From NCBI GenBank assembly GCA_016783545.1, contig JADHWJ010000002.1, forward strand, positions 1,617 to 65,616: a stretch of 64,000 bases of DNA. Direction: 5' to 3'. The notes beneath the pieces are model-generated. The model saw only the letters and a program-made list of their open reading frames with translations. It did no database searches and was not told the origin of the DNA. The position numbers were made by a program, and so were the translations under genes. Positions 1,300 to 39,016 of the stretch are shown here, piece after piece. Every line of letters starts with the position of its first letter. The first letter of the stretch is position 1. This stretch comes from Candidatus Aenigmatarchaeota archaeon. GTDB lineage: Archaea; Aenigmatarchaeota; Aenigmatarchaeia; QMZP01.

Positions 1300-1316
1300 T
1301 TGTCATTTAAGCGGGA
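1300..1316 (+). repeat. Conserved site copy TTGTCATTTAAGCGGGA
   Basis: Matches the consensus TTGTCATYTTAANGGGA seen in 13 copies. Confidence 0.8.
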
Positions 1317-1377
1317 TATATATCATTGTCGAAAGGTAAAATTTACATTTAAAAGTATTATTGGATAAACATATCCT

Positions 1378-14185: not shown

Positions 14186-14485
14186 CTATTCCTTTCTTTT
14201 TCCGCTGCCATATTTGTTATACCAGCAAAGAATTGTCCATCTGGAAACCTTTATGCCTTCATATCTTTCCAAGTGCTTTTTTGCTTCTGCAAGAGAAAAG
14301 CCCTTTTCATATAAAGAAACAGCTTTCATGATATCTTTTCTACTGAACCTCATTCTCCAATAACCATCATGCAATGTGAATTTCCTTCCGCATTTCTTGC
14401 AAAGCCTAAGTCTTTTCTTAGTCCTATCATTATACCTGTATCCCCTGAATACAATACTTTCTGAATCGCAATATGGGCACTTCAT
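14186..14485 (-). pseudogene. Zn-ribbon + HTH protein resembling an IS6/IS1-type transposase N-terminus; no DDE domain
   Basis: MKCPYCDS..CKKCGRKF, HTH ending VSRWTILCWYNKY; stop before any catalytic domain. Confidence 0.6.
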
Positions 14486-15740: not shown

Positions 15741-15820
15741 TAGAAGTAGTACTAAAGAAAAAAATCATCTTCTCTGGGAGTTTGCAAAGCAAACCTTGTG
15801 AACTAATGAATATGAAATGA
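15740..15820 (-). promoter_or_regulatory. Conserved 5' leader shared with island 1, downstream of TATA box TTTAAATA (15851-15858)
   Basis: TTCATATTCA..GTTTGCTTTGCAAACTCCCAGAGAAGATGATTTTTTTCTTTAGTA versus 345-414. Confidence 0.7.
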
Positions 15821-15968: not shown

Positions 15969-17990
15969 TTATACGAATTCTATCCTTTCAAACTTGCCTT
16001 TTTTCTCAAATTCCTTTACTGTAGAGATGAAAATAGTTGGCTTTCTCCCGCTTTCATAAGAGAATTTTGCAACTTCCTGTATGATTATGTTCTTTATGGA
16101 AGCGCTGGCGCATAAAAAATATTTGTTCTCTGAGACATCTTTTGCTATCTTGTCCCTGTCAAAACCAGTTTCTACCATAACAGAGATCTTTTTTCCACCT
16201 TCTTCAAATGTAAAGCAGTTCTTCTCTTCATTATATGTCCAGCCACTCTCAGAGAATATTGGATAGACATCATCTATGTTTATCTCCTTTTCCCCTTCTA
16301 TTCTACCAAATTGCTTCTCAAATATGCCCTGGCCAAGTTCTGTAAGATAATAATAATTTAGCTTGTTTTTCCCGACCTTTGCCTGTTTTATCTTAACCAG
16401 ACCAGAATCTATCAGGCCTCTTACATGTTTGTTAAATGTTGAGCCAGAAATCTTTACTGCTTTGTAAATCTGGGAAGTGAACGCAGCCCTGCCTTCACCC
16501 AAGACATGTAGTATATTCCAGCCCTGTTCTTCTAGTTCTTCTATCGGAATTTCGTCTGCTGGCTCCTTTTCAGACGAAGGCTCTTTTAGTCTTGCGAATA
16601 TTTCTGGAACCTGTGCTCTCATATGCTTTCTGACATCCTCATCTTTAATGGCACCTTTTCTCAATGAGTATTTTTTGAACTGGACAAGAAATGGGTCATG
16701 GAAAGCAGACATCCTCATTAGCATAAAACCATGCCCTATTGGTAGTTTTCTTAGATAGATACCCTGTTCTTCATAGTTTAGTCCTAGCATATTACTCGCA
16801 TCTAAGACATCAGACGCGTGTTTAGTATCCAGGCCCAGATTCATGTAGATATGTGTGGACGTGTTACCAAGTGCAGGATATGAAACAAGAGAAGGATGCT
16901 GGTCTATATAAATTATTCCCATACCAAGTTCCCTAATCTCTCTAAATATCAAATCCATGACTGTTTCTATACCAAGTGATGATGATTTTTCCCTATTCAA
17001 TACATGGTGCGCTTCTTCAAGTATAATAACACCCTGAAGCTCTTCCTTTTTCCCATGTATGAGAAGCCAATCTCTTATCCATTGAAGAATAATCTCTATG
17101 AAGAATGCCCTGTCATTTGCATCCAATGCATCTAGTTCTAATATGGTTATCTTTCCTTTCTGGAAAAATTCCGAGGGCTGAATACCTTCTTTGCATTTCC
17201 ATATCTCAGCAATCTCTCTGAAGCAAAGGCTTGCTAGAGGTCTTAGTGAAGTAGAAAGCCAGTTCCTTTCCCTTGATGAAAGAGACTCTCCTCCGTACCC
17301 CTCAAGCCAGCGTTTAATATCTGAAAGAATAGGATGCTGCTTCTCTTCGTGTATAGCATCCAGGCTTTTCATTATAAGATGCCTTCCGCCGCCCATAAGC
17401 ATGTACGCATGATCAAATATAGAAGAAAATTCCTTCATCCATTGGGATATCTGTATACCTTCTGGTGGTTTTAATGGATTGAATTTAAATGGTGCTGGAT
17501 CTCTTCCAATCGTATATACGTTTATGTGATCCTTTAGCTTTGTCTGTAAAAGATCCCTGTAATTTCTTTTGGAGAAATCAAATATCAGAATAGGAACATC
17601 ATTTTCGTTTATCTTATCTATAAGATCATATGCGATGTTTGTCTTTCCATAACCTGTAGAACCGAATATGCCTATGTGTGTAAGAAGCGCGTTCTTTCCT
17701 ATTTTCAGTGGATAGAGTCTTTTCTTTCCATATAGAACTTCTCCTATTTCTATATCACCAGACATTGCTATCTCTTTGTTTGGAGGTTCCATTAGAACAG
17801 AATCCCTTAGATCTTCATCAGAGAATGTAGCAGCCTTCAAAACATCAATAAGCTCAAATATTCTTTTCCTTGTGTCTTCGTCTGCCAGGAGGTATGCTCT
17901 TCCAAGTCTTGTAGCGCTTGCTTTTCCCAAGACAGGGATAAGTCTCTTTATTTCATCTGAAACCAGTCTTTCATGCATTTCTGTAACCAT
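15969..17990 (-). CDS. HerA/FtsK-like (DUF87) ATPase with C-terminal winged helix
   Basis: GIFGSTGYGKT Walker A, IILEEAHH Walker B, RELGMGIIYIDQHPS. Confidence 0.85.
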   Translation of the reverse strand: MVTEMHERLVSDEIKRLIPVLGKASATRLGRAYLLADEDTRKRIFELIDVLKAATFSDEDLRDSVLMEPPNKEIAMSGDIEIGEVLYGKKRLYPLKIGKNALLTHIGIFGSTGYGKTNIAYDLIDKINENDVPILIFDFSKRNYRDLLQTKLKDHINVYTIGRDPAPFKFNPLKPPEGIQISQWMKEFSSIFDHAYMLMGGGRHLIMKSLDAIHEEKQHPILSDIKRWLEGYGGESLSSRERNWLSTSLRPLASLCFREIAEIWKCKEGIQPSEFFQKGKITILELDALDANDRAFFIEIILQWIRDWLLIHGKKEELQGVIILEEAHHVLNREKSSSLGIETVMDLIFREIRELGMGIIYIDQHPSLVSYPALGNTSTHIYMNLGLDTKHASDVLDASNMLGLNYEEQGIYLRKLPIGHGFMLMRMSAFHDPFLVQFKKYSLRKGAIKDEDVRKHMRAQVPEIFARLKEPSSEKEPADEIPIEELEEQGWNILHVLGEGRAAFTSQIYKAVKISGSTFNKHVRGLIDSGLVKIKQAKVGKNKLNYYYLTELGQGIFEKQFGRIEGEKEINIDDVYPIFSESGWTYNEEKNCFTFEEGGKKISVMVETGFDRDKIAKDVSENKYFLCASASIKNIIIQEVAKFSYESGRKPTIFISTVKEFEKKGKFERIEFV

Positions 17991-18008
17991 AATTCCTCAA
18001 AATTTGCT

Positions 18009-18557
18009 CTATCTACCTTTGAATATTTTTACTATCTTTTTTTCTGTTTCAAATTGTTCTGAAAGCTCCCTAAACTCTGTTCTTAATTCCAATATATCCC
18101 GCCAGAACTGTAAATTTTCAGATCTTTTTTCCTTTCTAAGAATACTCATATCCAATTTTATGGCTCTCTTTTCATCAAGGTCTCCCACCTTCTCCATCAT
18201 CCTTTCCTTTTCTAATAAATCAACATCTATGTCATCTAAAACATCTTGGTGAATCTTTCCTCTCATTTCAATTGTCTTTTCTATCTCTTCTATTCTTGTT
18301 TTAAGAAATTCCACTCTGTCAAATAGACCACCAATAATATTAGGAGCAAGTCTTTCCAATGGCTGTATTTTTGTTTCCTCCATTTTTGGCATTGACCGTC
18401 TTTTGATAACCGTTTCAACTCTTTCTTCCACAGGTTTTTCTTCATATTCATCTTCCAGATCTTCAAGAAGTGTTTCTATCGGTGCTTCTGCCTCTTCTTT
18501 TTTCTTTTTATAAATATCGTCATCGTCTTCTGTTACATAACCTGGACCTATTGGCAT
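18009..18557 (-). CDS. Acidic coiled-coil protein, co-oriented with the ATPase
   Basis: 182-aa ORF, heptad-rich E/K/L/I. Confidence 0.75.
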   Translation of the reverse strand: MPIGPGYVTEDDDDIYKKKKEEAEAPIETLLEDLEDEYEEKPVEERVETVIKRRSMPKMEETKIQPLERLAPNIIGGLFDRVEFLKTRIEEIEKTIEMRGKIHQDVLDDIDVDLLEKERMMEKVGDLDEKRAIKLDMSILRKEKRSENLQFWRDILELRTEFRELSEQFETEKKIVKIFKGR

Positions 18558-21722: not shown

Positions 21723-22111
21723 TGAGTATTCTTAAACAATAATTTTTCTTTTTAAGTAACCAATACCAATTCAAGAGATATCAAAGCTCTTTTTGGCGTA
21801 AAACCCATTGAGCTTGTCCAACACATTTCACCAACTCATCAAGAGCTGGTTTAGAGAAGCTGTTTTCTTTCTTAGTTATCAGACTATCCTCTGTAAAGGA
21901 ACAATAGTCTTTTCTAGGTCTTCGGGAGCACTGTGTCCATTGGACTATGGCGGTAGAACATGGTAATGCCAATACGCAACCGTCCCATTGCAGCCATGCG
22001 CATAATTGGGAAATCGGTGGTGGCGGATTCTCTTTTCGCACCTCCCTTCTTGATGAAACCACTGACGCTTCGAGCAGTGCTATCCGAACTTTTTTTAGAA
22101 AGAGTTGGGTC

Positions 22112-22408: not shown

Positions 22409-22425
22409 TTGTCATCTTAAAGGGA
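22409..22425 (+). repeat. Conserved site copy TTGTCATCTTAAAGGGA
   Basis: Directly upstream of GAAAAGGCTTATAAA promoter and ACTATAG-AACA-CTATAGT operator-like palindrome. Confidence 0.9.
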
Positions 22426-22462
22426 GAAAAGGCTTATAAACTATAGAACACTATAGTATACT

Positions 22463-22687
22463 ATGGAAACAACAACAATACAAATAACTGAGAATTTGCA
22501 AAATGAACTCAAATCCAGAAAAATATCAGAAAATGAAAGCTATGAAGAGGTTATATGGGATATGATAGAGGATACTATGGAACTTTCTGAACAAACCAAA
22601 AAAGATATAAGGGAAGCTGAAGAGGATATCAAAGCCGGTAGAGTTCATACACTTGAAGAGATTGAAAAGAGAATCAAAGATGATTGA
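22463..22687 (+). CDS. Antitoxin (DUF7557/VapB3-like), partner of RelE
   Basis: TTIQIT..ESYEEVIWDM..EEDIKAGRVHTLEEI; overlaps the toxin gene. Confidence 0.8.
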   Translation: METTTIQITENLQNELKSRKISENESYEEVIWDMIEDTMELSEQTKKDIREAEEDIKAGRVHTLEEIEKRIKDD

Positions 22688-22943
22688 AATGTATAATGTT
22701 ATTTTCTCTAAAAAAGCAGGAAAAGAGTTTGATAAATTGGAAAAAATAATTCAGAAAAGATTAGTTTCTGTAATCAAGAGGATAAGGATAAGACCTGAGG
22801 CTTTTGTTAGAAAGCTTGTCGGAGGACCTTATTATAGACTGAGAGTTGGTGAATACAGAGTAATTTTGGATATCAGAAAAGGAGAATTGATTATTCTGGT
22901 TATTTCTATTGGTCATAGAAGAAACATCTATAAGAGCCTTTAA
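22680..22943 (+). CDS. RelE/ParE family toxin
   Basis: YNVIFSKKAGKEF..YRLRVGEYRVI..IGHRRNIY. Confidence 0.92.
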   Translation: MIEMYNVIFSKKAGKEFDKLEKIIQKRLVSVIKRIRIRPEAFVRKLVGGPYYRLRVGEYRVILDIRKGELIILVISIGHRRNIYKSL

Positions 22944-22954
22944 TTTACTTAAAT

Positions 22955-22971
22955 TTGTCATTTTAGAGGGA
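22955..22971 (+). repeat. Conserved site copy TTGTCATTTTAGAGGGA
   Basis: 11 bp after the relE stop; followed by GAAAAAGCTTTATAAA and GTAAACA-AATA-TGTTTAC palindrome. Confidence 0.9.
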
Positions 22972-23017
22972 GAAAAAGCTTTATAAATATGTAAACAAAT
23001 ATGTTTACAGTGATTAT

Positions 23018-23254
23018 ATGGTTCAAGTTCAATTAAGAGTGCCAGATAATATGGTTAAGGATATTGATGGATGGGTAGAAGAAGGAAGATTCAAAAACAG
23101 AAGCGATGCTGTTAAAACAATTATATCTCTATATGAGGATAAGATGAAAACAATGGAATTCCTAAAAATGCTTGTAAATAGGAGCAAAGAAGCTGAAAAT
23201 AACCCTGAAAAATTGATACCCCTGGATGATCTGGATGTTAAAAGTTCTAATTAA
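23018..23254 (+). CDS. Ribbon-helix-helix (CopG/Arc/MetJ) antitoxin
   Basis: VQVQLRVP..IDGWVEEGRFKNRSDAVK. Confidence 0.88.
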   Translation: MVQVQLRVPDNMVKDIDGWVEEGRFKNRSDAVKTIISLYEDKMKTMEFLKMLVNRSKEAENNPEKLIPLDDLDVKSSN

Positions 23255-23308
23255 TAATAAAGCGAATTTTTACAGATATGCCTTGATCGGCATTATAGGA
23301 GGCATTGG

Positions 23309-23569
23309 ATGTTTAAGATACTTCTACACACTCTAAGTTTAAAATCTCTTGAAAAGCTGGATAAAGAAGTTCAGTTTCAAATAAGGAAGAAATTAAGAGA
23401 ACTTGAGGAATTTCCTGAACAAAGAGGTAAGCATTTAAGATATACACAATTCTGGAGTCTGAGAATAGGTGATTATAGAGCTATATATGAAATTAAAAAT
23501 AAAGAAGTTATTGTTCTTTTCATAGGTCATAGAGATAGAGTATATGATGATTTCTCAAAGATATTTTAG
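23309..23569 (+). CDS. RelE/ParE family toxin
   Basis: WSLRIGDYRAIY..FIGHRDRVY. Confidence 0.92.
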   Translation: MFKILLHTLSLKSLEKLDKEVQFQIRKKLRELEEFPEQRGKHLRYTQFWSLRIGDYRAIYEIKNKEVIVLFIGHRDRVYDDFSKIF

Positions 23570-23714
23570 ACAGACGATTTACTTAAATTTGTTTAAGCCT
23601 TTTAGAGGCAAATGAAACCTCCATTTAAACCAATAAGATCAAATGGAGAACCTACTGCCTTCTTTGGTTAAATCTTTTCGCAAAAGCCTTAAGTTCACCC
23701 AAAAACCCTTAAAA

Positions 23715-23731
23715 TTGTAATCTTAACGGGA
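23715..23731 (+). repeat. Conserved site copy TTGTAATCTTAACGGGA
   Basis: Followed by GAAAAAGCTTTATATA; same sequence at 52002. Confidence 0.9.
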
Positions 23732-24160
23732 GAAAAAGCTTTATATACCACTAATACAATTAATCTTATCTGTCACTATGTAATAGTGATAATTAAAGGG
23801 AGAACATGGGAGTAACTCATGTTCTATGAAACTTAAATAGAGTTGCAATGCAACCGAAAGTTTCATAAATAGTAATTACAAATAAAAGAGATCAGGTGTC
23901 AAATTTGTCCCGCAAGGGTGAATTTGGCAAACTCTCCCATCTTGGAACTGCCAGTTGGCAGTTCCTCTTGGACCATTGGTTGTAAAAGATCAATGGTTTT
24001 ATCCTTACAAACACAATTGAACTGGCTTACTATCTTCGGATATACCAGTTCAAACCGAGTGAATACACGGATTAAAGGGCCAAATTTTTCTAGTTCTGAG
24101 AATCTTCAATGATTTTCTTCAAGGTCTTTTGTCTGTCTACTCGGTAATTACATAATTGTT

Positions 24161-24500
24161 AGGGACAGGAAGCGGGGTCGGTAAAACCATCCCCGATTAC
24201 TATACATCGCAACGGTAGGAGTCGCGAGTCCGCCCGCAGTACCACGCCTAATGGCTGGTAATGGCCGGCATAATTCCTACCCGGGGTCGGAACCACCCCG
24301 CTTCCTCCCTTCGGCTTCTAAGGTATACAGCCCCCTTTAGAAGAATACACCGAAGGATTCAAACGGTTCAGGGGCAATGTGGTGCACCATAATATTACAT
24401 AGGAGTATATAGGTGCACAAGGACGCCGAAGGGAGTCCCGAAAATTTGTCGTACCTCACTATGACATATGGTGAGGCACTCGCGTCCTCTAAGAGGACAC
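24161..24500 (+). ncRNA. Candidate structured RNA / long leader
   Basis: AGGAAGCGGGGT pairs with ACCCCGCTTCCT and encloses GGTAGGA/TCCTACC; four more hairpins follow. Confidence 0.55.
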
Positions 24501-24546
24501 TGATGTTTCGCTGATGGAGTCTTTTTCACTGAAAGGAGTGAAAGAG

Positions 24547-25086
24547 ATGGAAGAAGAAAGACGGTCAGAAGAAAGAGCAGACGCATACGAAGAGTTGGGT
24601 GAGGTTGCTGTGCCCACACCCGAGACCGCGCCGGAACCCACGGGTGGGATCACGATCAGGTTCACTCGCGGGAACGTAGTTTCCGCATTGATCGGAGCCC
24701 TGATTTGTTTCGGGGTGATGTACCTGATCTCCGAGGGAAACGACCGGCGACAGGTCGACGAGATCACCGAGCTGCGCGAGGTCGGCCTGAAGCTGCACAC
24801 CCTGGCCCAGAAGGCGTTCGACAAGTGCCGGGATATCGAGGGCTACGAGCGGGCCACGTTGAAGGTCCCGGCGATTTTGGCAAAGGGGCAGAAGGTCGAG
24901 ACCGCACCGAAACCGAAGCCCCGACAGGTCGAGCCGGAGCCGCAGCCTGAACCGGTCTACGACGACCCGGAGCCCGAGGTCGTGGAGCCTGAGCCGGTCA
25001 CGACCAACGACGACCCTCGGACCGAGGATCCCCCACCCATCGCGAACGATGAGTTTGAGGATGGGGGCGACGAAGGCGGCGAGTAG
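24547..25086 (+). CDS. Orphan membrane-anchored protein with Pro/Glu-rich acidic tail
   Basis: AAAGGAG RBS; TM VVSALIGALICFGVMYLI; ELREVGLK motif; ends DEGGE. Confidence 0.8.
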   Translation: MEEERRSEERADAYEELGEVAVPTPETAPEPTGGITIRFTRGNVVSALIGALICFGVMYLISEGNDRRQVDEITELREVGLKLHTLAQKAFDKCRDIEGYERATLKVPAILAKGQKVETAPKPKPRQVEPEPQPEPVYDDPEPEVVEPEPVTTNDDPRTEDPPPIANDEFEDGGDEGGE

Positions 25087-25096
25087 TTTTCGCTGC

Positions 25097-25151
25097 AACG
25101 GGAGTCCTATAGGCCTCGGGACTTCCTTAACAAAATAAAGGGAGGCCTACT
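25097..25151 (+). repeat. 55-bp intergenic direct repeat, copy 1
   Basis: AACGGGAGTCCTATAGGCCTCGGGACTTCCTTAACAAAATAAAGGGAGGCCTACT identical at 26162-26216. Confidence 0.95.
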
Positions 25152-25190
25152 GATGGATGTTGACGTTCGACGGTAAGAAAGGGACACAAC

Positions 25191-26153
25191 ATGAGGACGA
25201 GAGCCCTCACGGCCGCGCTCATTTTCACGGCCGCAACCATAGGACTCGCTGGGAGCGCCCGCGAGCATTACAAGGTCGGCGTCCGGCACATGATTCAGGG
25301 GTCTGATGCATATAACCCCCGTGCCGCGATGGAGGCCTTCAGCAAGGTATGTGAAGCCGATCCCACGTACGGGAACTCGATTGGCTTTGCGAAGCCTGTC
25401 AAGGAGCAGCTGTTCAACGCTGCTATGGCGTACTTCTCCGAAGTTACGGAGTCAGAGATGACTCTGGAGAAGAAGTTGGAAGAGCTGACTGCGATTAGGA
25501 TTGCATTGTTCATGTGTAAGTCAGATCGAGGTCAGTTCTCAGAAGTTGACCAAAGTGGTCTGAACGCGAAGATCATGGCGGTCAACGCGGTAGCCCAACG
25601 GGTGCAGGAGGTCATTAGGGCGCAATCCCGACAGGCCGAGCCGGAGAAGTTCGACGCAGCCGCGACGATGCAAGAGGTCGCGACACGTTACGATACGGCC
25701 AAGCGAGAGCTGGCCTTCGCGTCTCAGCTCGTGGGAGAGGTCCTTGAACAGGACCCGGACCATGAGGAAGCGAATCGGGCCAGGGAGCTCCTTGAGATTC
25801 GCCTCATACCAGTGGATGAGTTCAATGAGCTCAATGCGACCGTCTCGTTGCTGAAACAGACGGTTAACGAGGCCGCGGACAAGATTCGCGAGGCCCGGCA
25901 GGATCACGCGCGCCGGGTCCTTTACTCGCGCGAGCTGCGCGAGGTCGGGCTGAAGTTTCACGAGCTCGCCGAGATCAGTTACAACAAGTGGCTGAAGTTG
26001 GCCAAGCCCGGAAGCGAGGCTCGGACGCTGAAGCTTCCGGAGGTGCTGGAATACGAGCCGTTCATCTCGGAGCAGGTCCTTGATCTGGTTCACGACGATG
26101 AGCAGCACGAAGGCGACGAGCACGAAGCCGACGACGACGAAGGCGGTGAGTAA
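25191..26153 (+). CDS. Orphan secreted helical (TPR-like) protein, paralog of 24547-25086
   Basis: Signal peptide MRTRALTAALIFTAA; ELREVGLKFHELA; ends DEGGE. Confidence 0.8.
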   Translation: MRTRALTAALIFTAATIGLAGSAREHYKVGVRHMIQGSDAYNPRAAMEAFSKVCEADPTYGNSIGFAKPVKEQLFNAAMAYFSEVTESEMTLEKKLEELTAIRIALFMCKSDRGQFSEVDQSGLNAKIMAVNAVAQRVQEVIRAQSRQAEPEKFDAAATMQEVATRYDTAKRELAFASQLVGEVLEQDPDHEEANRARELLEIRLIPVDEFNELNATVSLLKQTVNEAADKIREARQDHARRVLYSRELREVGLKFHELAEISYNKWLKLAKPGSEARTLKLPEVLEYEPFISEQVLDLVHDDEQHEGDEHEADDDEGGE

Positions 26154-26161
26154 CTAGCCGT

Positions 26162-26216
26162 AACGGGAGTCCTATAGGCCTCGGGACTTCCTTAACAAAA
26201 TAAAGGGAGGCCTACT
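26162..26216 (+). repeat. 55-bp intergenic direct repeat, copy 2
   Basis: Identical to 25097-25151. Confidence 0.95.
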
Positions 26217-26259
26217 TTGGACGTGAAGTTGGGACGTTTTCAGAAGAAGGAGTAGTACC

Positions 26260-26754
26260 ATGAGAGCGATCACGATCGCCCTTATCACCGTTGCCGGACT
26301 GTCGTTCATCGGGTCGGTCGAGGCAGCGGAGATCGATTTGGACGCCGCATTGGCGGAAGTGACGGCCGCGCCGGATACGACGGCCGCGCCGGTTCGGAGA
26401 AGTACCAGTGCCCAGAGGCCGGTGGTTCGGAGAAGCGCCACCAGGGTCGCATACCCGGCCGCTCAGGCGCATGCTGATGCCGCAGTCACGGACATTGAGT
26501 CCAGTATCACTGAGGCCGAGGCACACGGGCGTGTTCGCCGCGCCCAGGCTGATAGGGTAGTTTCCGCAGCAGAAGAGGCCGAGGCCATGGCAGATGCGGC
26601 GGCGGCTCGGGCCCGTAGGGCGCAGGCCGAGGCACGCTTCGAGGGTGCCCGGAGCGAATTCCATAGTGGTTGCAGCGATGCGGCTGCCACACAGTATCGG
26701 ACACATCTCCGGCGCGTGACCCGTGCCAGCGGAGGTCGGGTGCCTGTTCGGTAA
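26260..26754 (+). CDS. Orphan secreted Ala/Arg-rich coiled-coil protein
   Basis: GAAGGAG RBS; signal peptide MRAITIALITVAGLSFIGSVEA; internal 27-30 nt duplication (TTAAPVRRST/AQRPVVRRSA). Confidence 0.75.
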   Translation: MRAITIALITVAGLSFIGSVEAAEIDLDAALAEVTAAPDTTAAPVRRSTSAQRPVVRRSATRVAYPAAQAHADAAVTDIESSITEAEAHGRVRRAQADRVVSAAEEAEAMADAAAARARRAQAEARFEGARSEFHSGCSDAAATQYRTHLRRVTRASGGRVPVR

Positions 26755-26765
26755 TACCCGATCTC

Positions 26766-26809
26766 AACCTCCCCCTGGTGGCATACAACCAGCTTGCCAG
26801 GGGGAGGTT
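26766..26809 (+). terminator. 13-bp perfect hairpin (terminator or processing site)
   Basis: AACCTCCCCCTGG..CCAGGGGGAGGTT. Confidence 0.55.
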
Positions 26810-26879
26810 AGCGTCCTTAAAAAGCTGGTTTTTCACCAGACCAGTCAAAACAACGAGACCTTCTTGAAAGGAGGTTGTC

Positions 26880-27239
26880 ATGTGGAGAATAAGTACAGGC
26901 GAGCTGGCACTTTTGATCATCGGCAGCTTTGTTGCCGGTGCAGTTGTTGCCGGCTTTCTTAGTCGGTTGGTGCGGGGTCGAGGCAAGCCGTCTCCGGCAG
27001 CTCAGCCAGTGCCAGTGCCGAGCGAGTCGGAAGTCGTTCTGACGAAAAGGGAGCTGACGGCTCTGGTGAAGAGCCAGGTTGTTAGTGCTCTCAAGGAGAA
27101 GGAGCTGGGAGCACAGCCCGAGCCGATAGAGCCGCCGGAGTTGACCAAACTGTCGGTAGAAGAAGTGGTTGATGCAATACCCGAATCAATCACCGCCGAG
27201 AAGGAGGAGGAAGTACCCGAGAAAGGAGAAGACTCATGA
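26880..27239 (+). CDS. Orphan single-pass membrane protein
   Basis: AAAGGAGG RBS; TM LALLIIGSFVAGAVVAGFL. Confidence 0.75.
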   Translation: MWRISTGELALLIIGSFVAGAVVAGFLSRLVRGRGKPSPAAQPVPVPSESEVVLTKRELTALVKSQVVSALKEKELGAQPEPIEPPELTKLSVEEVVDAIPESITAEKEEEVPEKGEDS

Positions 27240-27826
27240 GGAATCTGAGTTTCGCCGCCATCATAGCGGCTCTCCTTCTTGTAGGTTGTGAGAGGGAGAA
27301 GAGTTCCAGCAGCCGAGGGCGCACAACCAGGCGCGCCGCCGATGGGGAGAAGTTGACCCTTCGGGACCTGCAGGCGGATCCTAACGGGTTCGCTATCGTG
27401 GACCCAGACCGCCGGCGAATGAAGCTCCCCATGAGCTTCAGAATCGTCAGAGCCATGGACGGCGGGTCCGGTGAGGAAGTTATGCTGGTCGCTTATCTTG
27501 GGGGTGAGGAGAGCCCCAGCGATGAGCAGGACGGGGTTGAGGAAGATGTACCGCCGAACTATGTTCTCGTCCGGGTTCGGCGGGCGTGTGGTGTAGATCT
27601 CCTTGGCGGGGAGACGAACGCCAACTGCCGCCTCTTTGTGAAGAAGTTCGAGCGCAAAGGGACGGTGGAGATGGGCGATCACGGTGACGAATTGTATGTA
27701 ATCACGGTCGCTCGCGGGGACATCTACTACAACTACGACGTCATGTCCCTGAGCGGCGATAACATGACGGATACGGTTGAGCGAGACCGGCCGCCGGATC
27801 CGGTGCGGCACCACAGCTACCCGTAA
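27236..27826 (+). CDS. Orphan putative lipoprotein
   Basis: MRNLSFAAIIAALLLVG-C lipobox; ATGA overlap with the previous gene. Confidence 0.75.
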   Translation: MRNLSFAAIIAALLLVGCEREKSSSSRGRTTRRAADGEKLTLRDLQADPNGFAIVDPDRRRMKLPMSFRIVRAMDGGSGEEVMLVAYLGGEESPSDEQDGVEEDVPPNYVLVRVRRACGVDLLGGETNANCRLFVKKFERKGTVEMGDHGDELYVITVARGDIYYNYDVMSLSGDNMTDTVERDRPPDPVRHHSYP

Positions 27827-27989
27827 GGGAAATGAATACCAGGTCCCTCCCAAGGGGTGGAGGGGCCTGGTGGCCTCTTGAGAGAAAGGAGATGAAAATC
27901 ATGTTGTGACGCCTTTCACAAAAACAACACAATGTTGAGGGTACGGCAACAGTACCAGAAAGGGAGTGGCGCCCCACAGTTGCTTTATG

Positions 27990-28025
27990 ATGTCTTTTTA
28001 ACGGTATATACCATTAACTTGACTG
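27990..28025. repeat. Two degenerate conserved sites head-to-head (27990-28006 +, 28009-28025 -) around palindrome GGTATATACC
   Basis: ATGTCTTTTTAACGGTA and CAGTCAAGTTAATGGTA, each preceded by a hairpin. Confidence 0.7.
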
Positions 28026-28060
28026 AGTAAAGGGGAAGTTGTTCCCCTTGTAATTACTCC

Positions 28061-28993
28061 TTATTTGATTTGATTCAGCTCTTCGTGAAAGCTTCTCCCA
28101 GCAGGGACCATGTCGTCTGTAACCCTGGGGTACTTCTCCCTTTTCTGTAGCAGACGGTTGGTGGCCTCTTCGAGTCGGTGTTTGAGCCCTTGCATGGGCT
28201 CATAAGAGGGCCTGGGCCAGATCAGGATACCACCATCCTTGAGAGAGTATGTGAGTCCGAAGGGCTCAAGGAGTATGGTTAGTATGGCACCAACAGACCC
28301 TTCGAGGCATTCCACCTGCTCGATCTTGATATGGTCCTCCCTATTGACCATCAGGTCGAAGGTCACCTTAAACCCCCCAATATCAGCTAGACCACTCACC
28401 AACTCTTCGAGTGTGATTGAAAGAGGGCTGGGCTGGAAGGTTATTTCCTTATCGAGCTTCTTCAAGAGATCGATCTTCCAACGCTGCTCTGAACCAAACT
28501 CTTTTTCCAGGTCCTCGTCCACCTTCATCTGGTAGAGTTTGTTGCAGATCTTAGTCCTCTCTTCAGCTGCTCGGAGTTGGGTAAAGAGCCGTGCCTCTCT
28601 CTTATTACGGGGCTCTTCCACAGCACTCTTCAGACTAGCTTTGGCTGTTTTGAGCTGTTCCTTAAGGCTCGCTTCAGTTGTCTGATACCCTTCGACCCTT
28701 TTGCGGAGATCCTCGAGCTCCTTTTGGGCTTGGTCCCTTTCCCCCTCTGCGATTCGGAGCATCTTGATGAAAGGGCCGTTGTGCTTGGCCTTTTCGAGTT
28801 TCTGGTTCTCTGCTGAGAGTCTCTTTACCTCGGTTCGAAGCTCAGCGAGCTCAGGTTCGTACTTGGCTTTCAGCTCTTCTCGAACCCGGTTTTCACCTTC
28901 CTTTACGAGCCGACTGACCTCCTCTTGGAGACCTAGATCACCCGCAAAGGCCAGTGCTGTGAAGCATAGTGATACAGCGATTCTTCTGTACAT
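28061..28993 (-). CDS. Secreted coiled-coil protein with STN/secretin-N-like domain
   Basis: Signal peptide MYRRIAVSLCFTALAFAG; TLEELV..ILTILLEPFGLTYSLKDGGILI. Confidence 0.75.
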   Translation of the reverse strand: MYRRIAVSLCFTALAFAGDLGLQEEVSRLVKEGENRVREELKAKYEPELAELRTEVKRLSAENQKLEKAKHNGPFIKMLRIAEGERDQAQKELEDLRKRVEGYQTTEASLKEQLKTAKASLKSAVEEPRNKREARLFTQLRAAEERTKICNKLYQMKVDEDLEKEFGSEQRWKIDLLKKLDKEITFQPSPLSITLEELVSGLADIGGFKVTFDLMVNREDHIKIEQVECLEGSVGAILTILLEPFGLTYSLKDGGILIWPRPSYEPMQGLKHRLEEATNRLLQKREKYPRVTDDMVPAGRSFHEELNQIK

Positions 28994-29005
28994 ATTAATC
29001 CTCCC

Positions 29006-29542
29006 TCAGAACACGATGAAATTGAATGCTCCTGTATAAGCAAATAGACTTGCTATTAGAAGCACCAATATCATCACCAGAATCCAGGCCATCTTACTTT
29101 TCGACATGGTCAGAGTAAACGACCGCCACCAGGTCCTCCTTATACCTGGTTCATCGACCCTCCTATTCACCATCAGCACACGTACTATGTATAGAAGACC
29201 ACCCACTATGGTTGCAATAATGCTCCAAAAGAGCACACCCATCTTCACTAGTGTGGATGGTTGTTGCTTCTTCAGATCATTGAGACTTAGAAGCCTTTCT
29301 TTTTCCTTGAGATGATTCTGAAGATCAGCTATCTTCTTGGCCTTTTCCTCGAGTCTGGCCAGACTTTCTGCTCCCTTCTGGTTAGCCTGCTCAAGCTGGG
29401 CAGAGAGTTTGGTGTTCTCTGCCCGGAGATGCTTGACCTCATTTTGGAGCTTCTCGTACTCTTTCTCGAATTCAGCTATCCGAGAGAGGTCGGGGTCTGC
29501 TGTTACTAGAAACTGTACGAGTAGAAACATTACGCTTTTCAT
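29006..29542 (-). CDS. Orphan coiled-coil protein with two C-terminal TM segments
   Basis: Short hydrophobic N-terminus, heptads, two hydrophobic segments. Confidence 0.75.
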   Translation of the reverse strand: MKSVMFLLVQFLVTADPDLSRIAEFEKEYEKLQNEVKHLRAENTKLSAQLEQANQKGAESLARLEEKAKKIADLQNHLKEKERLLSLNDLKKQQPSTLVKMGVLFWSIIATIVGGLLYIVRVLMVNRRVDEPGIRRTWWRSFTLTMSKSKMAWILVMILVLLIASLFAYTGAFNFIVF

Positions 29543-30096
29543 TGGCTACTCTCCTCTGGCAAAACATCGCCTAACAAATCACCGAGTATGATCCTTGGCT
29601 CATTCATAATCGTTCTCAGCCTATTTTCTGATAGTGCAATCTCCTTTTCAAAGGCCTTTCGCTGCCATATGGTAATACCTAACAATACAATGACCAATAC
29701 GATGAGATAGAGTCCGGCGAGGGCCATTATCCATTTCCTCTGGTTCGCAGCTTGCTGTATCACCCTATCTCTAGCCATCCTAGCTTCCTTAACCTCTTGG
29801 CTAAGGGTTACAATTGCCCTGTTAAGACCTCGGATCTCCTTTCCAAGGGCAATCTGGGTGGTTTTCAGCGTTTTCTCGGCCTTTACCCGGGCTTCTTGAG
29901 AAAAACTAAGCCCCCTCTCTGTTATGTCAAGTTGTTGATTGAGGTTCTTTAGCCTTTCATCAGCAACCCGGAGCTTCCCCTTGAGCTCCTGATTTTCGAT
30001 CTGGAGCCTTTTGAGCCCCTTCTCGAACCTGGTGATCGATTCTTCCCCATACACTGTAAGACAGAGTAGGGGAAATACCATAGCTATGCGATACAT
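29539..30096 (-). CDS. Orphan signal peptide + coiled-coil + TM protein
   Basis: MYRIAMVFPLLCLTVYG; TM WIMALAGLYLIVLVIVLLGITIW. Confidence 0.75.
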   Translation of the reverse strand: MYRIAMVFPLLCLTVYGEESITRFEKGLKRLQIENQELKGKLRVADERLKNLNQQLDITERGLSFSQEARVKAEKTLKTTQIALGKEIRGLNRAIVTLSQEVKEARMARDRVIQQAANQRKWIMALAGLYLIVLVIVLLGITIWQRKAFEKEIALSENRLRTIMNEPRIILGDLLGDVLPEESSQ

Positions 30097-30369
30097 CTGA
30101 TTTCCCCTTAAGACGAACAAAGGACTAAAGAAAGTCCCTGAGAAATGGAAATCTGGCTAAAAAAGTGAATTATGAGACAATTCTCTCTCTTATCTAACCA
30201 GATAGACATATACGAATAATCCAATAGGTTTTTACACTCTATTGGGCAATATGTGTGTTATGTGTAAGGGTATTTGGCACAAAACCGCTTAAAAGCGGTA
30301 TTTAGTGACCATTGAATAGTAACATTAGAAATAGTTATTTAAATACATTATTGTGTGAAAAAATCGTGT

Positions 30370-33300
30370 TTATGATGACTGAGGGATGGTATCAGGTTCC
30401 TGAGGAACTGTATCTGGTTCTTGGGGAACGGTATCCGGTTCTTGTGGGCTACCATCAGGTTCTTGGTCACCACCACCATCGCTCATAGTACTCCAACTAA
30501 CAGGACACGCAAGTCCACCGCAGCTGAATGTATTAAAGTCACACTCAGGAGTCTCTCCCCTTGGGCAGTCAACATCCTTTCCTTTAAAACTTGAAGCAAG
30601 TCTTGTCCAGAAGCTCTTCTCTGAACAGCATTTTATTCCACCAAATTCTAACTTAGTGCTCTTTGTATCAATTCTTTGGTATGTATAGTTTGCATTCCCT
30701 CTTAACACAAACGTCTTTGAAGGCACTTCTAGGTCTGTAAGGCCTTGTTTAAAGTAACAAGATGCAACATATACACCTTTCAGCTGGCTGAAAGCAGCTT
30801 TGTCCCATACCAGCTTATTACCATCTTTTCTTGGAGCAGGATAACAGTCATTTTCGTGGCTAAAGCCAGGAACATTTTCAAGGAATTCTCCAGGGAACTC
30901 CAGTTCTATGAATTTCATATCAGTAATGTTTCCTTTGTTTCCCTGTGCTCCGGCAAGATTTATATCCACACTGAAAGGCATTCCCTCTGTAATCGGCTGT
31001 TCCTGAGTGTCTATGTTAAGCCTTACAGGGGCGTTTGTAAGTGTTGCCGCCTTCTTTGCTACTGATACTATACCTTCCCTTGTCCTTCTATCCCATTCAT
31101 CCCTGCCCATGAACTCAATCTCAAAGCTTGAGTCTATCTTGTACTTGTACATCACTACGGCTGTTAATGGTATGAATTTCTCCCTTAGGTTAGTGGATAA
31201 TGTGGTTGCGCAATCTATCATATCTGTTGCAGGGAAGAATACCTCTGTTGAAGCTAATTTGTTTAGATTTCTGTCAGGTGTTTGCAGTGGCTGTTCACAA
31301 TATCCAGGAGTGCCTCTCCTGAAGTCGTCATCACCTATATTTGTATTATGACATGCAATTTCAAGTTCAGTGTCGTCTACAAATCCAAGCTGGCCTATAT
31401 TGATATAGGTTTCATCCCCAGGCGCCCAGCTCGGGTCGTAATGAAGCGGAGAGCTAATCCTTATAGATACCTCTTCTGCGTCGAACGCGCCCTTATTATC
31501 AAGCTTGAGAGAGACAGTGTATGGCCTGCAGACATAGATAAGGCTAGTTCTAAAGCTGGTTATTTCAATACCATATGCTCCTGCCAAGCCTGTGTCAGAG
31601 TCTGTTGCGTATGAACCATTCATCATCTGTTGGGCATAACCAACAGGGTTTGTCAATAGTTTCCATCCAGTTCCGAACATGCCACCAAAGCCTGTGAACA
31701 GCTCTGCTAGTGGTTTGAATACGTCAGAGAAGCCTGTATAAACAGTTGGGAACCAGTCTCCAAGTATTGCTCCGCCAACTTCCTGGGTGCCTGGACCGAA
31801 TGCATATATTACTGTAGCTGCGCCTAGCATAAGCATACCAACTTCTGCTCTGTTCTCTGTGGGCGCGAAGAACCCAGCCACAAACGTGACAAACCAGAAA
31901 TACAGGAAGAATCCCTTAAGTAAGCCGGTCAGCTCCCATCCAACCCCTCCAATCATCTGGAAAAGCCCTCCCATACCGATATCTCCGCTAAATACCATCA
32001 ACAGAGCAAGGACTATGAAAATTGGAGCGCCCATTGGTATTTTTGAAATAGCAAAAAGCAAGCCAATTCCAACAAATACAATTGCAATGGCCCAGCCTCC
32101 AAGTGCTCCAGAACCTATTAATGCAATTCCCATTAATAATGCAAAAACGAATTTCATTGGTATTTCGTAGAGTGACAGTCTTTCATCTACATCTGCTGTT
32201 GGCGCTCCGCCAGCGCCTCTGTTCGCATGCGGTGGCGCAATAAAGAATGCCCATGCTATAAGCGCAAGAACCCATGAATCAAAAATACTAAGGAACGCAA
32301 ATGGTATGAATGTACATCCCAGAATGAACCTGTATGTGGAATCTATAAACTGTGAAGGATTATATCTATCCCCTAAATCATATCCATGTGAATAGCTAAG
32401 ATAACCAACAAAAAGAGTTATTATTCCGAAAAGGTTGAAGAAAGGAATTTCACTTTTTACAAAAAGACCCATGAACCCTCCGCCCATGAAGCCTGCATAC
32501 ATTCCTATTATTGCTGCTGACTTGAAGAAACTCTTTGTGAAGGCCATGCTGTAGTGGTGCCTTCCTGGTCTGTCATGGTGCATGTCTGATACAGCTCTGT
32601 GTAAATTTCCACCATACCCTCTGAATGACCTGCCTATCCCTCTGCCCCAATGACCTACACGTCCGAATCCACCATGGCGTATATCGAGTCCGGTCAAATC
32701 CGCATCTCGTATGGCTCTATCATCTTCAGGTTGGTCTCCCATTGGCCAATAGTCTGCTGGGTTAGGGAACATGTAATAGGCTGCCCAAGAAAAGAATCCA
32801 ACTATAAACCAGAAGTTTCCGGTCATTGATGACACAATCAGGCCGATTGCTACTAATGCAATGGTGGGCATATAGTCCCTGATGCTCCAGTGGGAGTAGG
32901 CGTCTCTCCAATGGAGTTCGCCTCTTTCCTTTTTCTTTTCCTTTAATGTAAATGTTATCTTGTAAACATGGTTTTTACAGTCAACATCAACATTATATTC
33001 TTCTGGATCAGGATCATGGGTATTACATAAACATCTCACATCATATACATTAGCTACGTTTGTTAGGAATGTAAAGAATCTTACCTTTTTCTTTGCAGGC
33101 ACATCTGCCAGTTTAAATGTTGAATTGGTTGGTTGAGGATCACAATGAACACTTACATTTTCTGCTTCCAAATCACTGGCTTTATTATCAATATAAACTA
33201 CAATCTTACAGCCTGGGCCAGCGGGGCCAGCAGGAGGTGGACCACCAGGAGGACCACCAGGAGGACCAGCAGGAGGACCACCAGGACCAGCAGGAGGTGG

Positions 33301-34515
33301 AGCACCAGGAGGACCAGCAGGAGGACCACCAGGACCAGCAGGAGGTGGAGCACCAGGAGGACCACCAGGACCAGCAGGAGGTGGAGCACCAGGAGGACCA
33401 GCAGGAGGACCACCAGGACCAGCAGGAGGACCACCAGCAGGAGCAGGCGCTGCAGCAGCCGGGCCTCCAGTATAATGAGCAACTACAGAATAGTTCTGGT
33501 CCATTTTTATATCTATTTCAGAATCACCGGTGTACAGATCAACATCAGGTATTGTATGTGGTGGTACTCCTGGTTGCCGGGCTGCAAGACCATCTCTGAC
33601 ACCAGTTATTTTATTTGGAACTGCTGGTGGAGCTGGCATACCTGGACCAAATCTATTCTCTAATATATCACCAGGCCACAAATTAACACCGTTTACTGTC
33701 CAATGGTCAAAAGTATAACCCGGATTAGGTCTTTGATGAATAGTTACAACAGAATCCTTTGCAGGTTCTGATTTTCCGTGCAGATTAACCCAACCAGCTT
33801 TTTCAGGTGCTTCATTAACAGCAAGAATAACTTTACCAGGTGGAGGTACAGGAGCCGGAGCAGGTGCTGGAGGAGGCGGAGCAGGAGCGGGTGGAGGAGG
33901 TTGCAATTGAAAATATGCTACGATGGTAGTATCTGCATTTAAATTAACGATTCTGGCCGGGTTGACGGATCCATCTTCCCATTTTTGAAAGACATAAAGG
34001 TTTCCACCAATAGCAACATTGTTATTGACAATGATATTTTTTACACCAGCCTTTAGTTTACCCTTATATGTGGTTGTTTTAGATGAACCATCTAGTGTAA
34101 AAGGAACACCTTTCATCGGCAAAGAATCAACAACCAATGTAAATTTATTTCCACCACCAGCACAACTACCAGTTGCTGTTATACTAATTTTTTTTGTTGC
34201 TAAAACTTTAGCGTTACTATCAATAACTTCAATAGTGATAACATGCTCACCTGGTACTATACCTGTTTTTGCATGGATATTTAATCCATTAGTGAAAAGA
34301 CCAGTATTATTTATGAGTTGTGCTGAATCATATATTCCATCTGTTCTTTCTGGTGGTTCAACCGACCCAAACCATGCAATAAGTTTTGGAAGAGATTTTA
34401 TTCTGATATCTATTAATTCATTTTGTGGTCCCCTGACATTGAATCCTAAAGTACTAGGTTTGCAAATTTTTACATTTGTTTTAGATACAGTGCTAATTTC
34501 TGCTAAACTAGGCAA
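30370..34515 (-). CDS. Large surface/membrane protein with Ig-like domains, Pro/Gly repeats and multi-pass core
   Basis: 1381-aa ORF, GGTGA RBS before TTG; InlB-B-repeat-like GYTFDHWTVNG; PGGPP repeats; many TM segments; LKLDNKGAFDA CARDB-like segment. Confidence 0.8.
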   Translation of the reverse strand: MPSLAEISTVSKTNVKICKPSTLGFNVRGPQNELIDIRIKSLPKLIAWFGSVEPPERTDGIYDSAQLINNTGLFTNGLNIHAKTGIVPGEHVITIEVIDSNAKVLATKKISITATGSCAGGGNKFTLVVDSLPMKGVPFTLDGSSKTTTYKGKLKAGVKNIIVNNNVAIGGNLYVFQKWEDGSVNPARIVNLNADTTIVAYFQLQPPPPAPAPPPPAPAPAPVPPPGKVILAVNEAPEKAGWVNLHGKSEPAKDSVVTIHQRPNPGYTFDHWTVNGVNLWPGDILENRFGPGMPAPPAVPNKITGVRDGLAARQPGVPPHTIPDVDLYTGDSEIDIKMDQNYSVVAHYTGGPAAAAPAPAGGPPAGPGGPPAGPPGAPPPAGPGGPPGAPPPAGPGGPPAGPPGAPPPAGPGGPPAGPPGGPPGGPPPAGPAGPGCKIVVYIDNKASDLEAENVSVHCDPQPTNSTFKLADVPAKKKVRFFTFLTNVANVYDVRCLCNTHDPDPEEYNVDVDCKNHVYKITFTLKEKKKERGELHWRDAYSHWSIRDYMPTIALVAIGLIVSSMTGNFWFIVGFFSWAAYYMFPNPADYWPMGDQPEDDRAIRDADLTGLDIRHGGFGRVGHWGRGIGRSFRGYGGNLHRAVSDMHHDRPGRHHYSMAFTKSFFKSAAIIGMYAGFMGGGFMGLFVKSEIPFFNLFGIITLFVGYLSYSHGYDLGDRYNPSQFIDSTYRFILGCTFIPFAFLSIFDSWVLALIAWAFFIAPPHANRGAGGAPTADVDERLSLYEIPMKFVFALLMGIALIGSGALGGWAIAIVFVGIGLLFAISKIPMGAPIFIVLALLMVFSGDIGMGGLFQMIGGVGWELTGLLKGFFLYFWFVTFVAGFFAPTENRAEVGMLMLGAATVIYAFGPGTQEVGGAILGDWFPTVYTGFSDVFKPLAELFTGFGGMFGTGWKLLTNPVGYAQQMMNGSYATDSDTGLAGAYGIEITSFRTSLIYVCRPYTVSLKLDNKGAFDAEEVSIRISSPLHYDPSWAPGDETYINIGQLGFVDDTELEIACHNTNIGDDDFRRGTPGYCEQPLQTPDRNLNKLASTEVFFPATDMIDCATTLSTNLREKFIPLTAVVMYKYKIDSSFEIEFMGRDEWDRRTREGIVSVAKKAATLTNAPVRLNIDTQEQPITEGMPFSVDINLAGAQGNKGNITDMKFIELEFPGEFLENVPGFSHENDCYPAPRKDGNKLVWDKAAFSQLKGVYVASCYFKQGLTDLEVPSKTFVLRGNANYTYQRIDTKSTKLEFGGIKCCSEKSFWTRLASSFKGKDVDCPRGETPECDFNTFSCGGLACPVSWSTMSDGGGDQEPDGSPQEPDTVPQEPDTVPQEPDTIPQSS
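33215..33465 (-). repeat. Low-complexity tandem repeat encoding (P/A)GGPP
   Basis: Iterated CCAGCAGGAGGACCACCAGGA units. Confidence 0.9.
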
Positions 34516-38684: not shown

Positions 38685-39008
38685 ATGCATGTGAAGAAGG
38701 CAGATGTAATCGCGTTGATTGTCGGGGCCTTTGTCATCGTTGTGGTCTTTATCATATGTAACTGGGCGAATAGCTTGTTCTCGGTTTACAAGTGCAAACC
38801 CTGTATGGTGAAGGCTGTAAACGAGAGCAAGAGCAACTATAAGGAGAGAATCGGCGTTGAACTGACAGTTGTCTACGAGACCGGCGAGGAGAAGAGAGAG
38901 ACGCTCTACAAGCCGGATTGGTGGCTTCTGGACAAGAATATCCTGAAGCCGGGTGTGAAGCTTCCGCTGAAGAAGCCGAAAGCTTTCATACCGGCAAGGA
39001 CACGATAG
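38685..39008 (+). CDS. Orphan membrane-anchored protein
   Basis: GAGGAG RBS; TM VIALIVGAFVIVVVFIIC. Confidence 0.7.
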   Translation: MHVKKADVIALIVGAFVIVVVFIICNWANSLFSVYKCKPCMVKAVNESKSNYKERIGVELTVVYETGEEKRETLYKPDWWLLDKNILKPGVKLPLKKPKAFIPARTR

Positions 39009-39016
39009 GAGAGAAC

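Follow-up and report, generated by a model that had tools for sequence, protein, structure and literature searches.

Oppositely oriented copies of a polar 19-nt box meet tip to tip between two convergent GC-rich cassettes in an Aenigmatarchaeota genome

Our analysis concerns a 64,000-nt stretch of contig JADHWJ010000002.1 of a Candidatus Aenigmatarchaeota archaeon ("the window"), and in it a dyad at positions 27990-28025 whose two inverted arms are copies of a 19-nt motif that recurs throughout this genome; we call this motif "the box" (consensus TTGTCATTTWARAGGGATA). The assembly holds 886 kb in 18 contigs and represents a genome that is about 70% complete; the window lies on its contig C12 (C plus a number denotes a contig of this assembly, G plus a number the genome of a relative, and L plus a number a fetched locus). 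The host genome has a GC content of about 35%, and the window encodes an eRF1-type release factor, which fits an archaeal host. The dyad is flanked by two convergent open reading frames (ORFs), 27236-27826 on the + strand and 28061-28993 on the - strand, each of which is the last of its operon. The GC content is about 58% in the region to the left and about 48–50% in the region to the right, and the strand skews indicate that the two regions are coded convergently; ORF positions and skews thus bear out the convergence at the dyad of GC-rich islands 6 (+) and 7 (-) that was described in the initial annotation. These islands are referred to below as the left and right cassettes.

The left cassette (island 6; 23715..27989, + strand) begins with a variant of the motif ("variant b") and a TATA box at 23715, followed by some 400 nt of AT-rich, hairpin-rich leader (TTTTTCTAG ... 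GGTCTTTTG) and then, within 24514-27826, by five ORFs of high GC content, none of which has a significant Pfam match; its GC and AT skews point to coding on the + strand. It closes with a 3' untranslated tail (27838..27989, +) that includes a stem-loop at about 27838-27872 and a weak fold at 27946-27983. In the right cassette (island 7; 28026..30345, - strand) the TATA box lies at about 30335-30345, the leader that precedes the ATG includes AGAGAGAAT, T6-TAG and GTCTTAAGGGG, and the ORFs are 29539-30120, 29006-29542 and 28061-28993; a search of 5.8 billion proteins gave no homologue of the 310-aa product encoded beside the dyad. A terminator-like hairpin (core GGGGAA-GTTG-TTCCCC) and a TTTACT linker form its 3' end (28026..28058, -). 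ORF calls within GC-rich islands are unreliable. Rfam and tRNA scans of the 64-kb window returned no match to known RNAs, so the islands in it are not RNA genes.

Read directly, 27990-28025 is ATGTCTTTTTAACGGTA-TA-TACCATTAACTTGACTG, that is, two inverted 17-nt arms around TA, just as first described. As copies of the box the arms extend over 19 nt each: arm A (27990..28008, +; ATGTCTTTTTAACGGTATA) marks the 3' boundary of the left cassette, and arm B (28007..28025, -; CAGTCAAGTTAATGGTATA on that strand) marks that of the right one. They share 2 nt (TA), and this overlap of their tips gives rise to the perfect 10-bp palindrome GGTATATACC at 28003-28012; compared with each other, the 17-nt arms are identical at 11 of 17 positions. 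Arm A scores 21.5 bits in our first position weight matrix (PWM) and 20.2 bits in a 19-nt PWM built without either arm, a value reached at only 45 of 1.77 million genome positions. The corresponding scores of arm B are 13.4 and 9.6 bits, and 76 positions genome-wide score 9.6 bits or more; in shuffled sequences about 0.001 hits of this quality are expected per 80-nt window. Since these scores hold without the arms' own contribution and chance would so rarely produce them, both arms are recognizable as boxes. Arm B departs from the motif at positions 2, 13 and 16, and the five positions that are invariant among the 49 strong copies (G3, T4, T9, A11 and G15) are all present in both arms. The linker TTTATG (27984-27989) precedes arm A, and TTTACT, read on the - strand, precedes arm B. 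It had also been claimed that each arm follows its own hairpin, and here only half of the claim survives. The right hairpin (28030-28049, read on the - strand) has a folding energy of -15.2 kcal/mol (z = -4.9 relative to shuffles) and was also matched by a terminator-like scan, whereas shuffled sequences fold about as well as the stretch 27935-27990 (z = -0.2), which contains the claimed left hairpin (27946-27983); the stem-loop at 27838-27872, just past the stop codon, is by eye the better left candidate. The dyad itself does not form an unusually stable cruciform relative to shuffles (z = -1.05).

A PWM scan of the whole genome finds 56 copies of the box at 14 bits or above, against 6 in composition-preserving shuffles, and nearly all of them are single. 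The conserved block extends over positions -9 to +21 (CCC-TTTATA-19-mer-TA), with the consensus TTTATA at positions -6 to -1. Two-state GC segmentation of the genome yields about 50 GC-rich islands that total 54 kb, and 27 of these terminate at a box, which makes 28 island-motif pairs, as two overlapping copies lie at one of the islands. The distance from island end to box is within about 7 nt in most cases, and the box is always oriented away from the island, behind a TTTATA-like linker and, before that, a hairpin whose sequence is unrelated from copy to copy. The short GC stems finish about 6 nt before the box, the hairpin sequences are not conserved, and inspection revealed no pairing of the box with sequence 5' of the stem. 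The same hairpin-linker-box architecture is found in other genera. The 5' ends of the 27 cassettes have neither an inverted nor a direct copy of the box above background in PWM scans, and the notion of an att-like or terminal-inverted-repeat-like sequence at both cassette ends was set aside on that account. A viral or plasmid origin of the box was also rejected, as IMG/VR holds only three matches to the exact pattern.

What follows the box varies among three contexts: a co-oriented host gene, with a TATA box directly after the box and the ATG about 35 nt away (TATA elements in this genome peak 25–33 nt upstream of start codons, a leaderless-promoter geometry); the stop codon of a convergent host gene, 0–20 nt away; or the end of another cassette. 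The same three occur in relatives. As the downstream neighbour may be of any of these kinds, the box belongs to the unit upstream of it. The upstream gene is co-oriented in most copies and typically ends 12–120 nt before the box; the exceptions are mostly in GC-rich islands. Nor is the box simply a promoter element of the downstream gene, since TTGTC is only mildly enriched upstream of genes (about 14 of 367 upstream regions) and nine box copies abut the stop codons of convergent genes. Native AT-rich units are also closed by boxes, for example the EF-1alpha gene (C13 7760) and two RelE-type toxin-antitoxin modules. At the EF-1alpha locus (C13 7742-9259, L056) there is an inverted box upstream of the transcription factor B recognition element (BRE) and TATA box and a forward box 54 nt past the stop codon, and the gene for a 956-aa protein (VWA/VIT-type by eye) ends tip to tip with the box upstream of EF-1alpha. 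In G021 a box follows a XerA-type gene; a box-bounded integrated element was considered there and rejected, the stretch between the boxes consisting of housekeeping genes and the XerA-type gene.

The locus of porG allows one cassette to be compared with its absence. The AP-endonuclease gene and porG are adjacent, with a short spacer, in eight relatives, all of which belong to other genera. Here they are separated by an insertion of about 1.1 kb (window 293-1378; C12 1909-2994) which ends with a box, and the native porG promoter is intact downstream of it. The junction is reproduced in independent assemblies. Strain polymorphism for this cassette was sought and rejected, as the two other assemblies are the same strain (99.8–99.96% identical) with the same content. 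Each border of the insertion has an ATATAT, either a possible target duplication or merely AT-rich DNA. The porG promoters of relatives (L020-L030) contain a conserved element, TTCGACTTTYAAC, 14–17 nt upstream of the TATA box in several genera and families, and the first half of this element resembles the box.

Tabulated over the whole genome, inverted box pairs comprise four head-to-head cases, with gaps of -2, 3, 14 and 17 nt. The first is the overlapping pair of the dyad (27990/28025); the second lies on contig C13 (9219/9259). The third (window 39518/39569, gap 14 nt) is situated between the convergent GC-rich ORFs 38918-39475 (+) and 39618-41015 (-), and each of its copies has its own hairpin. 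In the fourth (window 14529/14583, gap 17 nt) the - copy ends the island at 14590-15709; there is no island at the + copy, which is located in the promoter region of the gene for ZrH, the candidate box-binding protein described below. The dyad is therefore accompanied by three other inverted pairs, and both of its arms clear the PWM test. There are no tail-to-tail pairs in the genome, an island is missing from one side in two of the four head-to-head pairs, and more than 45 copies are single. Head-to-head pairs are in excess (four observed, 0.6–0.8 expected by random placement, P ~0.002–0.007), because the motif sits at the 3' ends of units that often converge, and because of clustering. The strict pair pattern is present in 2 of 47 family genomes, this one (twice) and G003 (once, gap 17 nt); the G003 pair is not an orthologue of the pair at window 14529, to which it has no tblastx match. 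PWM scans found further pairs in relatives, with gaps of 18 nt in G021 and 6 nt in G017, upstream of the ZrH gene, and G008 has 17 copies of the motif and no pair. Since pair geometry is not fixed, the working unit is a single asymmetric site. The dyad is thus no chance occurrence, but nor is it a specialised site: two independent transcription units meet there, each arm closing its own cassette with standard ends and the two differing in GC content; this agrees with one of the two options offered in the initial annotation, that of two independent units using the same spot. That there are two independent sites here, not one dyadic site, we regard as very probable.

The gene we call ZrH (14186..14485, -) encodes a 99-aa protein with a CxxC...CxxC Zn ribbon followed by three helices. 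Its structure model consists of the Zn ribbon and a 3-helix helix-turn-helix (mean predicted local distance difference test score 82.6), and 12 of 12 aligned ZrH members match N-terminal parts of NCBIfam IS6 and IS1 transposase models (NF033587, model positions 3-53; NF033558, positions 1-81; and NF050000), the IS1/IS1595 Zn-domain model being among them. None of the 12 aligned orthologues has a catalytic (DDE) domain, and no full-length IS6-type gene is present in this genome as assembled (about 70% complete), where the only IS6-model match is the N-terminal piece in ZrH itself. Full-length IS6-like relatives of 303 and 383 aa are encoded in G017 and G012, with no box nearby. Only 17 homologues of ZrH, all of 77–112 aa, were found among 5.8 billion proteins, and a sequence search of the PDB gave no significant match. 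The gene is single-copy and has been kept across at least 14 genera.

The phyletic pattern of ZrH follows that of the motif. Among 41 relatives 14 have both, one has only the motif, none has only the protein and 26 have neither; the corresponding numbers are 20, 6, 2 and 19 for the 47 family genomes, and 14, 1, 1 and 11 when these are counted as 27 genera. In four of the six motif-only genomes ZrH is present in a congener, and in one genus (g14) the motif and ZrH occur together in the same two of five genomes. An inverted box lies in the ZrH promoter at 11 of 16 loci (two metagenome contigs included), 16–45 nt before the start codon (70 nt in one), and at four or more ZrH loci the box centre TTTAAATA is about 25 nt from the ATG, the position of the TATA box in a leaderless promoter. 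Judged by its sequence, this is the promoter layout of an autoregulated DNA-binding protein. ZrH is adjoined by two genes (15969-18557, -), one for a 673-aa ATPase of the HerA/DUF87 type that has a C-terminal winged helix and the other for a product of about 190 aa, and this pair also adjoins ZrH on two unrelated metagenome contigs (L080 11597-14180; L081 12830-15429); the ATPase, a putative DNA translocase, may be a functional partner of ZrH.

We propose that each arm of the dyad would be one monomeric, orientation-dependent 3' boundary element that closes one of the convergent cassettes, such an element being made up, in order, of a GC hairpin that varies, a linker like TTTATA, the 19-nt box and TA. 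The box would be bound by ZrH, domesticated from the N-terminus of an IS1/IS6-type transposase, and ZrH would control its own gene through the inverted box in its promoter, which overlaps the place where the TATA box would lie. Bound ZrH would form a polar boundary at which RNA polymerase arriving from the cassette is halted over the T/A-rich linker, by roadblock termination or insulation. If each cassette ends in its own polar boundary, convergent cassettes would naturally finish tip to tip, and the model would explain the polarity of the box, its indifference to downstream context, the boxes on native units and the lack of tail-to-tail pairs. We consider that ZrH probably binds the box; the role of the box as terminator or insulator is put forward more tentatively, as a good possibility that falls somewhat short of an even chance. 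The explanation as a whole (independent boundary sites, bound by ZrH, acting as a polar boundary), with the weight placed on its first two steps, is in our judgement probably correct. Polar terminators of the protein-roadblock kind include those bound by Reb1/Nsi1 and TTF-I in rDNA and by mTERF in mitochondria. Like these, the box is a candidate protein-binding site just downstream of a unit, in fixed orientation, with a T-rich stretch before it; unlike them, it would use an unrelated protein, and its terminator function is predicted. We know of no roadblock-type terminator of this sort described in archaea.

Several observations weigh against this explanation. ZrH has no significant structural match in Foldseek, only weak ones. 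Six genomes carry the motif and lack ZrH, all of them incomplete metagenome-assembled genomes (63–88% complete), and the co-occurrence counts rest on related, non-independent genomes. The two arms share a rare T at motif position 16, found in 4 of 49 strong copies, which hints that the arm tips did not evolve fully independently; local homogenisation, or fusion of the tips through a small deletion, may be the cause. Foreign GC-rich cassettes are followed by a box far more often (27 islands) than native genes are (about 10), and with this skew a general terminator model does not suffice alone. Finally, the box lies inside the porG insertion that eight relatives lack, so it travels with its cassette as a recombination end would. 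A polar boundary leaves unexplained both the presence of a box on nearly every foreign cassette and its arrival within the porG insertion, and for these reasons the principal competing explanation is a recombination end derived from an insertion sequence (IS).

In that explanation the box is the terminal recognition sequence (an end or attachment site like the inverted repeat (IR) of an IS) of an IS1/IS6-derived gene-capture or transposition system with ZrH as its end-binder, and the dyad arose when a second cassette inserted beside the tip of the first, as in the IR-IR junctions of IS circles or dimers. Abutted IR-IR junctions are known from IS30 and IS911, and the 17-nt arms with their 2-nt TA spacer resemble them. 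The homology of ZrH to transposase end-binding domains, the 303- and 383-aa IS6-like relatives, the diverse, mutually unrelated and bacterial-looking cargo, the box within the porG insertion, the same-strand arrangement of boxes at 22409, 22955, 23715 and 27990, and the enrichment of head-to-head pairs would all fit. Against it stand the failure to find a catalytic IS6-type transposase in the genome (about 70% complete), the retention of ZrH as a single-copy 99-aa gene in at least 14 genera, the 5' cassette ends devoid of inverted or direct box copies, the lack of a box near the full-length IS6-like genes of relatives, boxes on native genes such as EF-1alpha, pair gaps that range from -2 to 17 nt, and the lack of presence/absence polymorphism among strains (both other assemblies being the same strain). 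We judge a recombination end unlikely. Somewhat less likely still is that the reverse reading of the box (TATCCC-TTTAAAT-GACAA) gives a core promoter directed into the cassette, one of a set of antisense promoters controlled by ZrH, in which case the dyad would be a compact back-to-back divergent pair that tunes or silences both foreign operons. The inner end of the box is 16–17 nt from the ZrH ATG in G026, G009, G021 and a metagenome contig, the place of a leaderless TATA box given the genome's TATA peak at 25–33 nt upstream of start codons, and every copy of the box has a TATA-like centre, with T9 and A11 invariant. Yet in this genome most boxes have CTCTTAAAT or a similar sequence at the centre, which is weaker as a TATA than the TTTAAATA found in relatives, the cassette-side hairpin and T-rich linker would have no obvious role, and many copies abut the forward-facing TATA box of the next gene (about 35 nt).

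The other option in the initial annotation, a dyadic core site of the dif/XerA or lox kind at which a tyrosine recombinase would carry out resolution, inversion or cassette exchange, has in its favour the inverted arms that flank a short TA spacer, as in dif/Xer and loxP sites, and three tyrosine recombinase genes in the genome. There are, however, about 56 copies, mostly single, instead of one site; the spacer is not fixed (6–8 bp in dif and lox); the arms are asymmetric 17- to 19-nt sequences that agree at only 11 of 17 positions; motif-rich G008 has no pair; and tyrosine recombinases occur in 37 of 41 related genomes irrespective of the motif, whose distribution is unlinked to theirs. With no integron integrase above the family cut-off either, a dif- or lox-type dyad is very improbable and effectively excluded. 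It is marginally less probable again that arm B is a chance resemblance and only arm A a real site. The 9.6 bits of arm B when it is left out of the PWM and its three departures from the motif would allow this, but against it are the very low expectation of such a hit in shuffles, the retention of every invariant position, and its canonical place after a strong hairpin and TTTACT at the 3' end of a canonical cassette.

Comparison with known systems places our preferred reading, that of independent polar boundary sites probably bound by ZrH, beside several precedents. In IS1 the InsA protein binds a terminal repeat that overlaps its own promoter. ZrH resembles InsA and the end-binding domains of IS1/IS6 in having a CxxC...CxxC Zn ribbon followed by a helix-turn-helix and a candidate site in its own promoter, and boxes, like IS1/IS6 terminal repeats, mark the outer tips of DNA segments. 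The box system differs from IS1/IS6 in that there is no DDE domain and no full-length transposase in the genome, the box is at only one end of each unit, the ZrH gene is single-copy and vertically conserved across genera, and the cassettes hold unrelated cargo with its own promoters and leaders. Integron attC sites offer another parallel, since diverse cargo of mostly unknown function likewise ends in a variable hairpin and a short conserved core, toxin-antitoxin cassettes are present, and the cargo crosses domains of life. Unlike integron cassettes, those described here are dispersed over at least 12 contigs in both orientations, with their own promoters and leaders; the best match to the integron integrase model (TIGR02249) in this genome (about 70% complete) scores 121.7 plus 88.5 bits against a cut-off of 265, and by inspection there are no attC core boxes (RYYYAAC/GTTRRRY) at the stem base. 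A literature search for cassettes or integrons in Aenigmarchaeota found nothing relevant.

The PeSL elements of T4-type phages, composite terminator-promoter motifs (PMC2839356, PMC4122927), are similar in being short intergenic modules with a stem-loop and a promoter-like conserved box that punctuate variable, mostly orphan genes and are possible exchange points between unrelated sequences. The end of the porG insertion at the box, relative to the eight syntenic relatives of other genera, may be a breakpoint of the PeSL type (near-identical assemblies have the same content). Here the hairpin sequences are unrelated and conservation is limited to the 19- to 30-nt box, the modules are dispersed in both orientations over a cellular archaeal chromosome, and the box is linked to a dedicated candidate DNA-binding protein, none of which is so for PeSLs. 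The box system is a member of none of the kinds compared, as at least one defining feature fails for each, the roadblock terminator excepted, for which protein-dependent termination would be the deciding trait.

Given the single-site rule the dyad itself is ordinary, but the system that it exposes is not. In this family of ultra-small symbiotic archaea the foreign genes, which number in the dozens and are partly bacterial, sit in units of one design, each of which finishes in the same conserved polar box; the phyletic pattern of the box is shared by ZrH, a transposase-derived protein that also has a box in its own promoter. If ZrH does bind these boxes, the system would be a clear prokaryotic example of a transposase domain that was domesticated and has a network of sites across the genome, and if the boundary model is true it could offer a first case in archaea of transcription-unit boundaries that are sequence-specific and protein-dependent. 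It is also conceivable, if improbable, that the box and ZrH are a remnant or working part of a system for the uptake of bacterial genes as standardised cassettes (leader, cargo, hairpin and box), and tip-to-tip junctions such as 27990-28025 would then be reactive or preferred docking points for new cassettes. Either way there is a concrete route to the study of cross-domain gene domestication by DPANN archaea.

The cargo of the GC-rich islands looks foreign and partly bacterial by its sequence and composition. Its mean GC content at third codon positions is 0.58 in island genes and 0.28 in host genes, and the proteins are mutually unrelated except for one paralogue pair inside a single island. 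None of the cargo has a match in 16 motif-adjacent loci from five relatives (G004, G007, G008, G018 and G021). Bacterial-looking products recognized by eye include GFTLIE-type prepilin N-termini, a Gfo/Idh/MocA-like enzyme, an SDR-like enzyme and a VWA-like protein, of which Pfam confirmed only one prepilin N-terminus, in an ORF of the window. The best relatives of a 564-aa island protein (55–62% identity) are encoded in Phycisphaerae, Omnitrophota, Pirellulales, Lentisphaera and Spirochaetes genomes, and no box at 11 bits or above is present in the loci of these bacterial relatives. Most islands have at their 5' ends a loose leader composed of AGAGAAG, a T-run followed by CTTAG, GTCTTTKG and a Shine-Dalgarno sequence. 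It is AT-rich, with a hairpin first, a run of 5–7 T before CTTAG and GTCTTTKG sometimes doubled; examples are at window positions 345-414, 15758-15816, 21840-21910 and 30100-30210, and it is found at most island 5' ends genome-wide. The T-run within the leader suggests regulated read-through. G008 has its own leader variant. In the left cassette, two spacers contain a 60-nt intergenic element (25092-25151 and 26157-26216, 97% identical) with a hairpin and AAAGGGAGG, and the flanking ORFs 24514-25086 and 25191-26153 look paralogous, as they have in common DNA stretches that are 72–75% identical.

To the left of the dyad there is a tandem same-strand array of variant-b motifs (22409..23733, +), with copies at 22409, 22955 and 23715, each followed by a BRE/TATA. 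The copies at 22409 and 22955 drive two RelE/ParE-type toxin-antitoxin pairs (22463-22943 and 23018-23569), whose promoters are near-identical (TTGTCATTTTAGAGGGAGAAAAAGCTTTATAAA, then a palindromic operator); the same 33-mer is found on contigs C4 and C13. Directly downstream of another box and TATA is the gene (13187-13597, -) for a 136-aa archaeal protein in which one domain resembles the alpha-subunit C-terminal domain of bacterial RNA polymerase (PF03118, E = 6e-11). An island on contig C7 (28960-29925; L057 961-1925) has four tRNA genes in its 5' part and a box about 575 nt past the last of them. ORF 30370-34515 (-), which could encode 1381 aa, contains about 17 tandem 12-nt repeats, very purine- and GC-rich, at 33191-33490.

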